A stretch of DNA of 64,000 bases. Origin: a virus. Its lineage: Duplodnaviria; Caudoviricetes. The stretch spans positions 8,322 through 72,321 of the IMG/VR virus record IMGVR_UViG_3300024187_000002; one strand, 5' to 3'. Below the pieces are notes generated by a model that worked only from the letters and a program-made list of their open reading frames with translations, searched no databases and was not told the DNA's origin. Shown here one piece after another: positions 30,763-52,384 of the stretch. Each line of letters begins with the position of its first letter. Position 1 is the first letter of the stretch. A program made the position numbers and the translations under genes.

Positions 30763-31386
30763 TCATGGTTTTGTGAAATCCTTTGTCTTGAGTTTGACGA
30801 TTAGCCTATGGCCCTTTTTGTCGAATAGCGTTTCCGCTGTGCGGCCCACAAGCCCCTCAGCTCGCGCCTTCCCTTCGCCAAGCAGCGACGGAAACCCTCT
30901 CTTGACCATTGCCGTTGCGTCATCAAGCGTCATCTCTCCGATGAACGGAACAACCTCAAGATTCAGCCTTCGCGCTACGTCGCAAGTGTTATCCCAACTC
31001 AGCCACCATTTATCGTCAACGAGCACATCGAACACGATGAACCGTTTGATAGGCGAATAATCGCCGCCCTTCTGAATGCCCGCGCCGTAGCCTTCGCCGT
31101 AAATAACAGCGTTCGTGTCGGGGAAGATTTCAGCCATCTTCGCCGCGCTCACGGACTCGTAAAGGTGCTTGATAAGGTCGGCGTGAATCTGTGCGTTATC
31201 AGTCTTACCGCCAAAGGTCAACGTGCCGTTCTTCCAGATGCAGCGGATATTCGTGCCGTCAACTTTCTCCGTCCATTGCCACGTCTTAATCAGCGAGTAG
31301 GTGGCGTTCTTGAGCTTCGACGGATCGACCTTGAACGTGTCCATATCGCGTTCGTATAGAGTTTCAATCTTGTGGTATTCGCTCAT
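30763..31386 (-). CDS. RNA ligase (Rnl2-like nucleotidyltransferase domain)
   Basis: TEKVDGTN (motif I), IYGEGYG (III), FIVFDV (IIIa), EGLVGR (IV), IVKLKTKDF (V). Confidence 0.88.
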   Translation of the reverse strand: MSEYHKIETLYERDMDTFKVDPSKLKNATYSLIKTWQWTEKVDGTNIRCIWKNGTLTFGGKTDNAQIHADLIKHLYESVSAAKMAEIFPDTNAVIYGEGYGAGIQKGGDYSPIKRFIVFDVLVDDKWWLSWDNTCDVARRLNLEVVPFIGEMTLDDATAMVKRGFPSLLGEGKARAEGLVGRTAETLFDKKGHRLIVKLKTKDFTKP

Positions 31387-47917: not shown

Positions 47918-48571
47918 ATGAAGTCACTAAGACCAGAAAGAGCGCAGAGATTCGCCGCGAAGTATGTTAGGAATGGATTTAATCCGGTTCAGGCGGTAGT
48001 TGATTGCGGCATCACGCGCAATCGTAATTCGGCTCACGTGATTGGCTGGCGTCTGTTACAAAATGTTACAACCCGCCAAGAAATTCGCAAGCATCTTACG
48101 AAGATGATATCTAACGACGTAATGACCGCTCAAGAAGTCCTACAGCGGCTTTCTAAGCACGCTAGAGCCTCTTTAGCTGACGTTCTCACAGATGATGGCC
48201 ACTTCGACCTGCAAACCGCAAAAGATAACCATTCTGACGATTTACTCAAGAAATTAAAGGTTCGCAGATTAAAGGATGGCTCTGTAGAACATGAATACGA
48301 GATTCACGATCCTCAGAACGCTCTCGTGCAAATGGCCCGTGTTCACAAGCTATTGACCGATAGAGTTGAGCAAACCAACACTTCTGAACAATCTCACATA
48401 GTAGAGCAAACTATCCTAAAACGTTCTGAGAGAACTGGTGAAGATGCTGAATCTATTGCACTTAGCCTGCTAGAATCATTTCAGGATGAGCCAGAATTCT
48501 TACAGCCTGAGTTGTGGGGAAAGTTTGCTTATGTGCTGGCTAAACCGTTGGAAAGCAAGGAGATACAGTGA
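47918..48571 (+). CDS. terS: Terminase small subunit
   Basis: FAAKYVRNGFNPVQA...GWRLLQNV...EVLQRLSKHARA...IHDPQNALVQMARVHKLLTDR. Confidence 0.85.
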   Translation: MKSLRPERAQRFAAKYVRNGFNPVQAVVDCGITRNRNSAHVIGWRLLQNVTTRQEIRKHLTKMISNDVMTAQEVLQRLSKHARASLADVLTDDGHFDLQTAKDNHSDDLLKKLKVRRLKDGSVEHEYEIHDPQNALVQMARVHKLLTDRVEQTNTSEQSHIVEQTILKRSERTGEDAESIALSLLESFQDEPEFLQPELWGKFAYVLAKPLESKEIQ

Positions 48572-48699
48572 CGCGAACGGCTGCAGGGATCGCATTATTG
48601 GTTAGCGGCATATCAGTGATAGCCGTGTCCGTTGTGCGTCTGTGTCAAATGTGGCGAGCTGAAACGCTGCGCCGCGCTAACTACTATAAGAATGAATAG
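48568..48699 (+). CDS. 43-aa single-TM protein
   Basis: AAGGAG SD, GTGA overlap with terS; AGIALLVSGISVIAVSVV. Confidence 0.5.
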   Translation: MTRTAAGIALLVSGISVIAVSVVRLCQMWRAETLRRANYYKNE

Positions 48700-48790
48700 C
48701 TTACGCCAATTCTACCGCCAGAAGCGCGTCGGTAAGGGCAAAAACGGAATGGTGTATAGACATTTGCTATGCGAAGTGCTATACAGTAGC

Positions 48791-48927
48791 TAGCGGTTCC
48801 CTCTCGTGGTTGCGTGAGTGGCTGAAACGTGACGCCAGCAAGATCGGAGATGCGATTGAGGCGCTGGATTGGCCGATGCTATCCGACCCGGGGTTCGACT
48901 CCCTCACCGTGAGAAATGGGGCCGCTA
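48791..48927 (+). ncRNA. Non-canonical tRNA-like RNA (class II-like cloverleaf on an extended stem; no CCA, no normal anticodon loop)
   Basis: Acceptor-like stem 48802-48810/48906-48914; D arm CGT-GAGTGGCTGAA-ACG; long variable arm; T arm GGGG-TTCGACT-CCCT; flanks 48791-48800/48918-48927 also pair; promoter-like TAGACA...TATACAGT at 48757-48787. Confidence 0.6.
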
Positions 48928-48937
48928 CAATTTATTC

Positions 48938-49393
48938 ATGGCAAAACAGCAATTCAACCGACGACTATCAGATGAGGCGATAACGGCAATTAGCTGGTGG
49001 GCGAAACAAGACTCAACCCCGGCGCGGAAAGTAACTGATACAGAGATTGTAGAGCGAGCGATTGCGCTGTACGACCAGATGCGTGCGAATGGCGGGGGAG
49101 TTCCTGAAGCCGTTCCGGTTATTCCCGAAGCGCAGCGAGTTGAATCTCGACCATCAACGGGGCGGATAACAAACATTTCCGCTAATGCGGGTTTCGACCC
49201 TGCGACTATTCCCGGCGTCTCGCGTGGTGTTTCAACAAACTTCACCTGTCGCTGTATCCATTCAGGGTGCAAAGGATCGAAGTTTCAGGGAGCATCGAAG
49301 TATGCAAATCTTTGTCCGGCTTGTGGCGAGTCTGGACATTCGGGCGATCCGCGAAGCTGTCAGGAATGTTTTAACGATATGGGGCCAGCATGA
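48938..49393 (+). CDS. RHH-like N-terminus plus Cys-rich C-terminus
   Basis: MAKQQFNRRLSDEAITAI...EIVERAIALY; CRC...C...CPAC...CQEC. Confidence 0.55.
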   Translation: MAKQQFNRRLSDEAITAISWWAKQDSTPARKVTDTEIVERAIALYDQMRANGGGVPEAVPVIPEAQRVESRPSTGRITNISANAGFDPATIPGVSRGVSTNFTCRCIHSGCKGSKFQGASKYANLCPACGESGHSGDPRSCQECFNDMGPA

Positions 49394-50908: not shown

Positions 50909-52384
50909 GTGATCAACGTAGATGCTCTTGAGGTAGAGATACGGCAAAAGTTCGCTAAACTTCGTAATCGGTTCCAAGCCGAGATTCCCGACACTTCCAA
51001 GCATCCCAACCAGCACGCCTTCGTCCACAGCACAGCTAAGCGTAACGTGATTCGCGCGGGCCGTCGCGGCGGGAAAACTTTTGGCACTGCTATACGTGCG
51101 GTCACTCGCTTTCAGCAAGGGGCGAGAGTGTTGTACGCTGCGCCGACTCAAGACCAGCTAGATCGATTCTGGGTTACGGTCTGCCGGTGTTTACAGAAGT
51201 CGATTGACTCGAAACAGATTTACAAGAACGAGACTCGGCACATCCTAGAAGTTCCCGGTACGGAGCAAAGGATTAGAGCTAAGACGGCGTGGAATGCCGA
51301 CTCTCTCCGTGGTGATTATGCAGACGAGTTAATTCTTGATGAGTGGCAGCTAATGAACGAGGACGCGTGGAGGCTTGTGGGCGCTCCAATGTTGGCTGAT
51401 AAGAACGGGAACGTGACGTTCATTTACACTCCGCCGTCCCTGCACTCGCGCTCAGCGTCTAAGGCTGACGACCCCCAACACGCGGCCAAGTTATTTAAGC
51501 GAGCCAAACAAGATACTACAGGTCGATGGGCGGTGTTTCACTTCTCTAGCCGAGAGAACCCCTACATTAGTCAGGACGCTATTGAGGAATTAGCACAGGA
51601 TATGACGGCTTTAGCTTATCGGATGGAGATTGAAGCTGAAGACGTAGATCAGAATCCGGGCGCGTTGTGGACGCGAGAAGTTATCGAGAAAGGACGACTC
51701 GGAGAGAACGACGTACCCGACTTGGAAAGAATCGTGGTAGCCGTAGACCCGTCGGCTACAGCTGACGGTGATGAGGCCGGGATAACAGTTGTAGGCAGCG
51801 CTAATGGTCACGGGTATTTACTAGCGGATGTGAGCAAACAAGGTAGTCCTGCTCAATGGGCTGAAACAGCAATTTCAACGTTTCACTATTACGATGCTGA
51901 TCAGATTATCGCAGAATCAAACAATGGCGGTGAGATGGTCAAGCTAACTCTAAACACGGTCGATCCTCGCGTGCCCGTCACGTTGGTTCACGCCTCAAGA
52001 GGGAAACAGACCAGAGCGGAGCCAGTAGCGGCACTAGCCGAACATGCAAGATTGCACCATGTTGGTAAATTTCCGTTGTTAGAGGACGAACTGTGTTTGT
52101 GGATGCCAGGGGATGATTCGCCGAATAGGCTAGACGCTTTTGTTTGGGGAGTGTCGGCGTTGAATTTATTCAAATGGCAAGAGAACCCGCGCAGTCGAAA
52201 AGAGATGATTCACCGTGCTATTCCAGATAAGTATAAACCCGAAACACTGCAAACGAATTACTCCCACGCTCAAGAGATGGCGGTGAGATTTCAATATGAA
52301 CAAGCCAAGAAAAAGGTGCAGACTTCACGGGTATATGAGTTCAACGAGTGGCTTGATCCGGTTGAAGAACGAGACGAAGGCTGA
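50909..52384 (+). CDS. terL: Terminase large subunit
   Basis: AGRRGGKT Walker A, LILDEW Walker B, VVAVDPS RNase H-like nuclease, RLDA. Confidence 0.95.
   Translation: MINVDALEVEIRQKFAKLRNRFQAEIPDTSKHPNQHAFVHSTAKRNVIRAGRRGGKTFGTAIRAVTRFQQGARVLYAAPTQDQLDRFWVTVCRCLQKSIDSKQIYKNETRHILEVPGTEQRIRAKTAWNADSLRGDYADELILDEWQLMNEDAWRLVGAPMLADKNGNVTFIYTPPSLHSRSASKADDPQHAAKLFKRAKQDTTGRWAVFHFSSRENPYISQDAIEELAQDMTALAYRMEIEAEDVDQNPGALWTREVIEKGRLGENDVPDLERIVVAVDPSATADGDEAGITVVGSANGHGYLLADVSKQGSPAQWAETAISTFHYYDADQIIAESNNGGEMVKLTLNTVDPRVPVTLVHASRGKQTRAEPVAALAEHARLHHVGKFPLLEDELCLWMPGDDSPNRLDAFVWGVSALNLFKWQENPRSRKEMIHRAIPDKYKPETLQTNYSHAQEMAVRFQYEQAKKKVQTSRVYEFNEWLDPVEERDEG

Follow-up and report, generated by a model that had tools for sequence, protein, structure and literature searches.

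A Serine-Type, Non-Decoding tRNA Look-Alike as a Probable Insertion in the Leader of a Bacteriophage Gene

The Caudoviricetes genome deposited as IMG/VR virus record IMGVR_UViG_3300024187_000002 codes for a tRNA-shaped element that very likely derives from a tRNA-Ser, does not decode and has been inserted in the leader of a protein-coding gene. Positions below are those of the window, i.e., the analyzed stretch of 64,000 nucleotides, which corresponds to bases 8322–72321 of the 72,321-bp record; the latter has direct terminal repeats and an estimated completeness of 100%. The element has the body of a class II, serine-type tRNA and spans about 137 nt of the plus strand (48791–48927), between a promoter-like sequence and the ATG of a gene for a 151-aa protein (48938–49393, plus strand), whose N-terminus is by eye similar to the ribbon-helix-helix (RHH) domain and whose C-terminus is Cys/His-rich (hereinafter the RHH/Zn-ribbon gene). 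It is real and unusual and, while known from one phage, has an unusually clear insertion history.

The acceptor-like helix (5′ strand 48802–48810, 3′ strand 48906–48914) comprises 9 bp, including two G-U pairs, and is not followed by CCA. When read as a 7-bp acceptor, its position +1 is U48804, its discriminator is G48913 and G48806-U48910 forms a G3-U70 wobble. U8 and G9 lie between this helix and the D arm (CGU / GAGUGGCUGAA / ACG, 48813–48829), which is of the ordinary Ser type with a stem of 3–4 bp and an 11-nt loop. On the other side of the anticodon arm, a long variable arm of 19 nt (GGAU-U-GGC / GCU-AUCC, 48866–48884) is followed by the T arm (GGGG-UUCGACU-CCCU, 48890–48904). The combination of a 7-bp acceptor with a T stem that characterizes tRNAs is found here, the T stem having 4 bp plus a C-C mismatch in place of the fifth pair; the acceptor branch can accordingly be read as 7/5 with this mismatch or as 9 + 4 bp, i.e., 13, with an unpaired C between them. 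The nucleotides that build the tRNA elbow, namely U8, A14, G18G19, A21, G53, U54U55C56, A58 and C61, are all present.

In contrast to this preserved core, the anticodon arm (48831–48865) is remodeled. Its CGCC/GGCG stem (48833–36 with 48860–63) closes a 23-nt loop in which an internal loop, AGCAA/GA, leads to a 5-bp helix, GAUCG/CGAUU, capped by the hexaloop GAGAUG (48842–57). As this 23-nt segment with its extra helix replaces the anticodon loop, decoding is impossible. By eye, no single excision from it yields a U33-bearing loop of 7 nt, and the anticodon loop that ARAGORN forces on it, CGAUUGA, has a G at position 33. The ends are equally atypical: UAGCGGUUCC (48791–48800) and GGGGCCGCUA (48918–48927) form a closing helix of 10 bp, including two U-G pairs, with pair probabilities of 0.67–1.0, and a 1 × 3 internal loop (C48801 opposite AAU at 48915–17) takes the place of the CCA. 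Because leader and trailer thus pair over 10 bp, there is no free CCA end, and the acceptor and closing helices together make up a quasi-continuous helix of 19 bp. Across the closing, acceptor and T helices there are five G-U pairs and no A-C mismatches, a pattern which fits, if weakly, pairing in the plus-strand RNA (P of about 0.03 if all departures arose via transitions). An original prediction, made by a model reading the letters of the window, had proposed an elbow-preserving, non-decoding tRNA look-alike with this D loop, T arm, variable arm, set of helices, missing CCA and 10-bp flank pairing; every one of these features was recovered at its place and both the sequence and the list of pairs confirm the anatomy.

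Standard tools do not see the element. Default ARAGORN calls no tRNA genes in the genome, Rfam gives no match at gathering thresholds and the RF00005 tRNA model has none in the whole genome even at E ≤ 10; the sole Rfam signal at E < 1 in the region is the 13-nt T loop against the tmRNA model RF00023. Once ARAGORN is permitted introns and its threshold is eased slightly, it makes a single call across the 72 kb, namely this element, to which it assigns an arbitrary “16-nt intron”. The check by ARAGORN and Rfam envisaged in the original prediction was therefore negative at default and gathering settings and pointed to exactly this site at relaxed ones. Similar settings, with intron length capped at 40 nt, gave one extra call in 80 loci of related phages (roughly 0.65 Mb). 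The element is also the only tRNA-like gene in the genome. A strict skeleton scan (T arm, 7-bp acceptor, U8 and GG) found 3 matches in 1.8 Mb (0.9 Mb of DNA, both strands), the element among them, and 0 in shuffled sequences. Helices of at least 10 bp between flanks occur at only 0.24% of random genome positions, making a closing helix by chance unlikely, which supports the original prediction on this point. Folding energies are less telling: the z-score of the overall minimum free energy is an unremarkable −0.41, the cloverleaf with the closing helix has −45.8 kcal/mol as compared to a minimum of −52.4, and the thermodynamic probability of the D, T and variable arms is low (only ~0.18 for the pairs of the variable arm), as is usual for such arms in tRNAs. 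The tRNA-likeness is far above chance, and the structure is no chance product.

The RHH/Zn-ribbon gene is recorded as a 174-aa open reading frame (ORF) starting at TTG 48869, which over-extends the gene and overlaps the 3′ half of the element. Its true start is ATG 48938: the N-terminus MAKQQFNRRL or MGKQQFNRRL of the eight closest of ten aligned homologs corresponds to this codon, and those homologs that share the N-terminal domain all begin at its position (the protein has 13 homologs in a large protein collection). Between the element and this ATG lies an AU-rich spacer of 10 nt, CAAUUUAUUC, without a Shine–Dalgarno (SD) sequence. Upstream of the element, TAGACA (48757–62) and TATACA (48780–85) form a promoter-like pair with a 17-nt spacer (48757–48785, plus strand). 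It went unlisted by a consensus scanner because the latter accepts only T as the sixth base of the −10 hexamer. Transcription is predicted to start at about 48792–48794, i.e., 7–9 nt past TATACA, which would coincide with the first pairs of the closing helix. The original prediction had noted a promoter-like sequence just upstream, and this is strengthened by the conservation of the promoter block upstream of the orthologous gene in four related loci (L084, L085, L087 and L088).

These orthologous loci reveal the state without the element. In L084, L085 and L088, the promoter block (GCTATRC repeats and TATACA) reaches the ATG in 8–11 nt. In L085 and L088, 0–2 nt separate the end of ...CAGTAGCTAG from the ATG and the junction of L084 is similarly short; across the three, the ATG follows the end of the promoter block by 0–4 nt. 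Judging by these distances, their mRNAs are expected to have little or no leader. In this phage, 144 nt separate ...CAGTAGCTAG from the ATG: alignment with the loci lacking it delimits a block (48794–48937, plus strand) that consists of the tRNA-like element and the spacer CAAUUUAUUC. The original prediction had considered a simple pseudogene, for which relatives would bear a canonical tRNA at this place; the relatives carry no tRNA and their junction is empty, the element appearing instead as a lineage-specific clean insertion into a plastic 5′ junction. What this comparison adds to the original prediction is hence a 144-nt lineage-specific insertion that would form the 5′ leader of a conserved gene. 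Given the order promoter, element and ATG, the element would be the 5′ end of the transcript and should constitute the 5′-terminal domain of the mRNA of the RHH/Zn-ribbon gene, which heads the terL block. The same junction varies in other loci too. In L089 (20–88), an unrelated imperfect hairpin of 66 nt (GCCCGG...CCGGGC) begins right after the −10 box and ends before the ATG, apparently as a second independent structured insertion, and in L087 the leader is about 30 nt long. From these two cases, it would seem that the junction repeatedly gains closed 5′-terminal structures.

No homolog of the element was found by BLASTN against phages and Escherichia coli genomes, by BLASTN and a covariance model of the element in 0.79 Mb of relatives of terL and of the 151-aa gene, by searches with the flanking proteins in IMG/VR, or by a search with the 151-aa-protein alignment in GTDB genomes. 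The exact D-loop/T-loop pattern with expanded spacing retrieved only unrelated sequences from IMG/VR and the JGI metagenomes. The same phage is also present in an independent Logan assembly, at 100% identity over 3,525 bp. In genome collections, the large terminase subunit has its closest relatives on phage-sized contigs binned with metagenome-assembled genomes (MAGs) of Acidobacteriota, the best of them (69% identity) with a MAG of the Pyrinomonadaceae. As 4 of the 12 matches are acidobacterial while other phyla are also present, we call the host an acidobacterium only tentatively. Five candidate-host genomes have no close match or source tRNA. In the Pyrinomonadaceae MAG, the tRNA-Ser genes have this same D-loop type but encode CCA and differ from the element in their stems, for which reason we rejected a host tRNA as its direct source.

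Other phages do, however, code for tRNA look-alikes of a comparable kind. Scans of IMG/VR with slightly degenerate D-loop/T-loop patterns recovered at least 17 other distinct elongated Ser-type look-alikes of 103–126 nt. These have a 7-bp acceptor, a correctly spaced Ser-type D arm and a 5-bp T stem, and in them 56–82 nt separate the D loop from the T loop as compared to ~42–47 nt in an ordinary tRNA-Ser. They are located in L112, L113, L116/L136, L117/L124/L131, L118, L119, L122/L130/L137/L145, L125, L127, L128, L129, L133, L135, L142, L143, L144/L146, L178 and L183. In most, all 5 of the 5 T-stem pairs are formed. The extra sequence resides in the anticodon and/or variable arm, with an extension helix replacing the anticodon loop in several (L116, L117 and L127); several lie inside phage tRNA clusters (e.g., L116 and L117). 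The 15 look-alikes of the first pattern scan, tested as excised sequences, all escaped default ARAGORN. The covariance model of the element scores the look-alikes at 18–40 bits versus 34–35 bits for ordinary tRNA-Ser, and they are heterogeneous and unalignable to the element outside the tRNA core. By pair counts in an alignment of 12 of them, only the tRNA core helices pair in all; this alignment was fitted to the model and its sequences are probably independent, and it is thus not evidence for the extra helices of the element.

Two tRNA-like sequences may be singled out. The 5′ half of the look-alike at L178:7189–7291 is by eye ~74% identical to the element, with a compensatory change in the D stem, and about 10 nt past it (7301 onward) an ORF begins whose N-terminus resembles, again by eye, a tyrosine integrase, which suggests that look-alikes such as this one may also be integration targets. 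In L059, a fragment of a related phage, a third tRNA-like sequence (1687–1753) follows a canonical tRNA-Ile and a tRNA-Ser upstream of terL; it has a 7-bp acceptor, a T arm and one further arm and scores 25.2 bits on RF00005 against a threshold of 29 bits.

The best match among the look-alikes is one with closed ends, found at L146:7794–7922 (= L144:5588–5714 and L185:7794–7920). It shares with the element the Ser-type D arm, the expanded anticodon arm, the U-GAC junction, a closing helix (here of 11 bp) with a GCGG/CCGC core and its status as a lineage-specific insert in a very short junction. It differs in belonging to an unrelated phage, which has no proteins in common with this one, and in being placed after an ORF end, ahead of the SD sequence of the next gene, rather than after a promoter; in L146 the upstream ORF ends at the UGA of the look-alike’s D loop. 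In L187 and L188, relatives of that phage with a marker protein 63% identical, the two genes abut without an insert. There would accordingly be two closed-end, anticodon-remodeled Ser-type elements, both apparently clean sporadic insertions, although the similarity outside the core makes only a marginal case for their homology. Among the canonical tRNAs of the examined loci, 2 of 135 have perfect leader/trailer helices of 11–12 bp: a tRNA-Leu(tag) in L121 (c453–536) and a tRNA-Thr(tgt) in L126 (9685–9758), in which no CCA is encoded and Watson–Crick helices continue the acceptor stem. Closed ends are hence not unique to mimics. In these two, the leader/trailer helix might serve as a stalk for processing or reflect the mobility of a cassette.

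Among the possible roles, we favor, with a probability of a little under two in five, one in cis, in which the tRNA-shaped cassette is a self-insulated module for leader processing or 5′-end protection. In this scheme, a module from a class II (serine-type) tRNA would have entered the lineage as a discrete 144-nt insertion at the promoter/ATG junction and would be made as the 5′-terminal part of the mRNA of the RHH/Zn-ribbon gene. Its tRNA shape and 19-bp helix might then present a substrate to host RNase P, RNase Z/E and/or RNase III, so that it could act in cis in processing and 5′-end protection in a manner comparable to the t-elements of plant mitochondria. Cutting would free a short unstructured AU-rich leader before the ATG, with a stable tRNA-shaped RNA as by-product. 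We favor such a role because orthologous junctions repeatedly bear closed 5′ structures and because the closing helix starts at the predicted 5′ end. The parallel element of L144/L146, which likewise has closed ends and is absent from relatives, is in line with it, and if the closed-end tRNAs of L121 and L126 are functional, closed precursors must be processable.

Several points weigh against this proposal. Pairing of leader and trailer, which includes −1:73 and −2:74, should impede RNase P and RNase Z more than assist them. A cut after the discriminator would leave a 24-nt leader lacking an SD sequence instead of the leaderless form of the relatives, and as a 5′ stabilizer a plain hairpin like that of L089 would suffice. 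The inner helix of the anticodon arm is not significant, given that a 5-bp stem arises in 12.7% of shuffles of the 23-nt loop. Moreover, the element is a single sequence from one phage, the two independent assemblies being identical. Finally, a cis role gives no reason for the intact elbow and variable arm, which would be better explained by a mimic acting in trans.

The alternative that survives best, though we think it unlikely, is that the element is a neutral remnant: a tRNA-Ser-like gene cassette of phage or host origin, with inverted repeats already at its flanks, would have been captured by illegitimate recombination where the genome tolerates it. An insertion or duplication of 16 nt in the anticodon loop would then have inactivated it, and it would persist solely because it is recent and harmless to expression. 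The sporadic distribution agrees with such an origin, the element being a singleton (in 0.79 Mb of relatives and in the pattern scans of IMG/VR and the JGI metagenomes it has no homolog), absent from the closest relatives of the flanking gene and paralleled by the equally sporadic element of L146. So do the loop sequence GAUCGGA-GAUGCGA, which resembles an imperfect 7-nt tandem duplication, the C-C mismatch in the T stem and an acceptor without G1-C72 and G2-C71, the usual identity pairs of tRNA-Ser; and since canonical phage tRNAs bear similar flank helices, the closed ends need not be a new adaptation. On the other hand, all helices are still intact (9/9 acceptor and 10/10 closing pairs, with departures of the G-U rather than the A-C type) and all tertiary nucleotides of the D and T loops are in place. 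Further, where three relatives have little or no leader, a structured 144-nt insert lacking an SD sequence would be expected to carry a cost, and useless DNA is usually purged fast from phage genomes.

More doubtful is a role in trans, along the lines of the decoy suggested in the original prediction, by which the closed tRNA-shaped RNA, after its excision or as a stable 5′ fragment, would titrate or mislead a protein that reads the class II tRNA shape and not the anticodon, candidates being seryl-tRNA synthetase (SerRS), a tRNA-modifying enzyme, a host toxin or a defense nuclease or nucleotidyltransferase aimed at tRNA-Ser-like substrates. The retained parts, i.e., elbow, long variable arm, acceptor helix and discriminator G, are just those that anticodon-independent tRNA-binding proteins such as SerRS read, while the lost part is needed for decoding only. 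The element is the sole tRNA-like gene of the phage and stands behind a conserved promoter; 17 other elongated look-alikes occur in IMG/VR phages, several in tRNA clusters. The phage additionally codes for a stand-alone RNA ligase domain protein of 207 aa (30763–31386, minus strand; PF09414, 2e-19), its sole RNA-repair-type gene, which hints at a biology of RNA damage and repair. Against this, the ligase is the only tRNA-related enzyme among ~75 proteins scanned, and no TROVE/Rsr protein accompanies it. The lack of a 7-mer resembling an anticodon loop hardly fits a decoy for anticodon nucleases, the missing free CCA end makes for a poor decoy of acceptor-end toxins, and the other look-alikes cannot be aligned outside the tRNA core, the best scoring 40 bits against the 34–35 bits of an ordinary tRNA-Ser.

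A broader version of the role in trans, which we regard as improbable, would have the element represent a class of cassettes not described so far, i.e., self-insulated class II tRNAs with closed ends and no anticodon that move horizontally and are taken up at promoter-proximal or intercistronic junctions, whose RNA acts on a host factor recognizing tRNA shape (e.g., a tRNA-Ser-directed toxin or defense enzyme). Lastly, cleavage by RNase P/Z, CCA addition and aminoacylation could yield a chargeable, non-decoding tRNA serving as an amino-acid donor outside the ribosome, with a possible Ser identity via the variable arm and G73 or Ala identity via the G3-U70 wobble, all of which are present; neither SerRS nor alanyl-tRNA synthetase needs the anticodon. 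While irregular tRNAs that can be charged but do not translate have been reported from Acidobacteria-derived sequences (PMC5389517) and the host is possibly acidobacterial, we deem this very improbable in view of the missing CCA (which the tRNA-Ser genes of the candidate host encode), the paired ends, the acceptor without G1-C72 and G2-C71 and the lack of any aminoacyl-transferase-type gene found in the phage.

The surroundings of the element are those of a terminase region. It is placed in a 366-nt gap between the gene for the small terminase subunit (47918–48571, plus strand; Pfam Terminase_2, 1.3e-17; PHROG 51, 2.7e-20) and the RHH/Zn-ribbon gene. The stop codon of the former overlaps (GTGA) the GTG start of a 43-codon ORF (48568–48699, plus strand), whose product may be a small membrane protein, with a single hydrophobic helix recognizable by eye. 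On the 3′ side, four small ORFs come after the RHH/Zn-ribbon gene; beyond them, 2.3 kb downstream and equally oriented, lies the gene for the large terminase subunit (50909–52384, plus strand; Pfam Terminase_6C; PHROG 2). In terminase relatives (50–67% identical), the small subunit gene, wherever detectable, directly abuts the large one; the 2.3-kb block is therefore extra in this phage. Overlapping the promoter, three to four direct repeats of GCTATRC, 11–12 nt apart, are seen at 48757–48793 and in L084, L085, L087 and L088. The cluster does not recur elsewhere in the window and probably serves the RHH-like 151-aa protein’s gene as its own operator. Relatives feature a C-rich, partly conserved non-coding stretch, CCCTCCCCGGCAT ... 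GGCACGTAG, upstream of the promoter (L084:3800–3950, L085:785–905, L086:3800–3920 and L088:115–240), which is absent from this phage and for which RNAalifold found no convincing structure shared by the four. The genome as a whole has a G+C content of 50.5% and codes for DnaB, a beta clamp, SSB, a YqaJ exonuclease, NinG, a DNA methylase and a 2,349-aa SLT-domain protein, in addition to the RNA ligase and both terminase subunits.

If functional, the element would imply that bacteriophages use the tRNA shape without decoding, either as an organelle-like punctuation of mRNA or as a protein-binding mimic. It offers a clean natural before-and-after case, as close relatives possess the same promoter and gene without the insert, and the look-alikes missed by default ARAGORN point to an under-annotated class of phage RNAs. 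Should the trans-acting cassette class hold true, it would be a new type of RNA-based anti-defense or host-takeover factor; should the element merely be a captured pseudogene, it would be a minor curiosity of phage genome plasticity.

Compared with known RNA families, the element is not a canonical tRNA, its 23-nt loop standing in place of a 7-nt loop with U33 on a 5-bp stem and default ARAGORN and Rfam calls being absent. Nor is it an intron-containing tRNA, since no excision yields a U33 loop and 16 nt are too short for a group I intron; by eye, neither the anticodon arm nor the closing helix has a bulge-helix-bulge motif. It is not a tmRNA either, for which a tag reading frame, pseudoknots and a CCA end would be expected: in tmRNA mode ARAGORN finds nothing, and only the T loop matches RF00023. 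Nor is it the attP of a tRNA-targeting integrative element: both tRNA halves are present, there is no close match in five candidate-host genomes, and no integrase was found in the genome, where a tyrosine integrase was looked for.

The original prediction had pointed to allo-tRNAs. These and the irregular tRNAs of Acidobacteria and phages (Mukai et al. 2017, PMC5389517) resemble the element in their long variable arm and Ser-like ancestry, in that some of them are inactive in translation and in a setting that may be acidobacterial. Allo-tRNAs have a 12-bp acceptor branch organized as 8/4 or 9/3 and a Sec-like D arm with a long stem and a tetraloop (PMC5389517). The link does not hold for the element, which has an ordinary Ser D arm, no free 3′ end, no 7-nt anticodon loop and a branch of 7/5 or 9 + 4 rather than a 12-bp 8/4 or 9/3 branch; an 8 + 4 branch is drawn by ARAGORN only by leaving a linker base. 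With YrlA, it has in common that it is a tRNA mimic with an intact D/T elbow and no free CCA end. However, YrlA is permuted, with a loop-closed acceptor stem and ends that exit via an Rsr-binding stem (Chen et al. 2014, PMC4201824), and it bears a GNCGAA motif and is encoded no more than 4 kb from rsr, some copies being phage-encoded (PMC4201824). The element keeps the normal tRNA order, has no CGAA in 48791–48927 and comes without an rsr gene: no TROVE (Ro60/Rsr) domain was detected in the 72-kb genome by a search whose controls were positive, and no Rfam family of the Y-RNA type matches the element region even at E ≤ 10.

A closer likeness is to the plant-mitochondrial t-elements and the principle of tRNA punctuation, i.e., to tRNA-shaped, non-decoding structures found in mRNA near the 5′ end, which are proposed to serve RNase P or RNase Z as cleavage signals (Forner et al. 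2007, PMC1920247). The element, too, is a non-decoding tRNA-like fold, lying between a predicted start site and an ATG. It differs in occurring in a bacteriophage, in its ends closed by 10 bp and in having kept the class II variable arm, and its cleavage is a proposal. In functional terms, the nearest described things would be these t-elements and bacterial tRNA–mRNA co-transcripts. In the thrU-tyrU-glyT-thrT-tufB operon of E. coli, decoding tRNAs are co-transcribed with an mRNA and released by tRNA-processing enzymes, and the T4 stable RNAs, species 1 and 2, are tRNA-shaped and lie within a tRNA cluster; the element, in contrast to both, is solitary, non-decoding and situated in a leader that its relatives lack.

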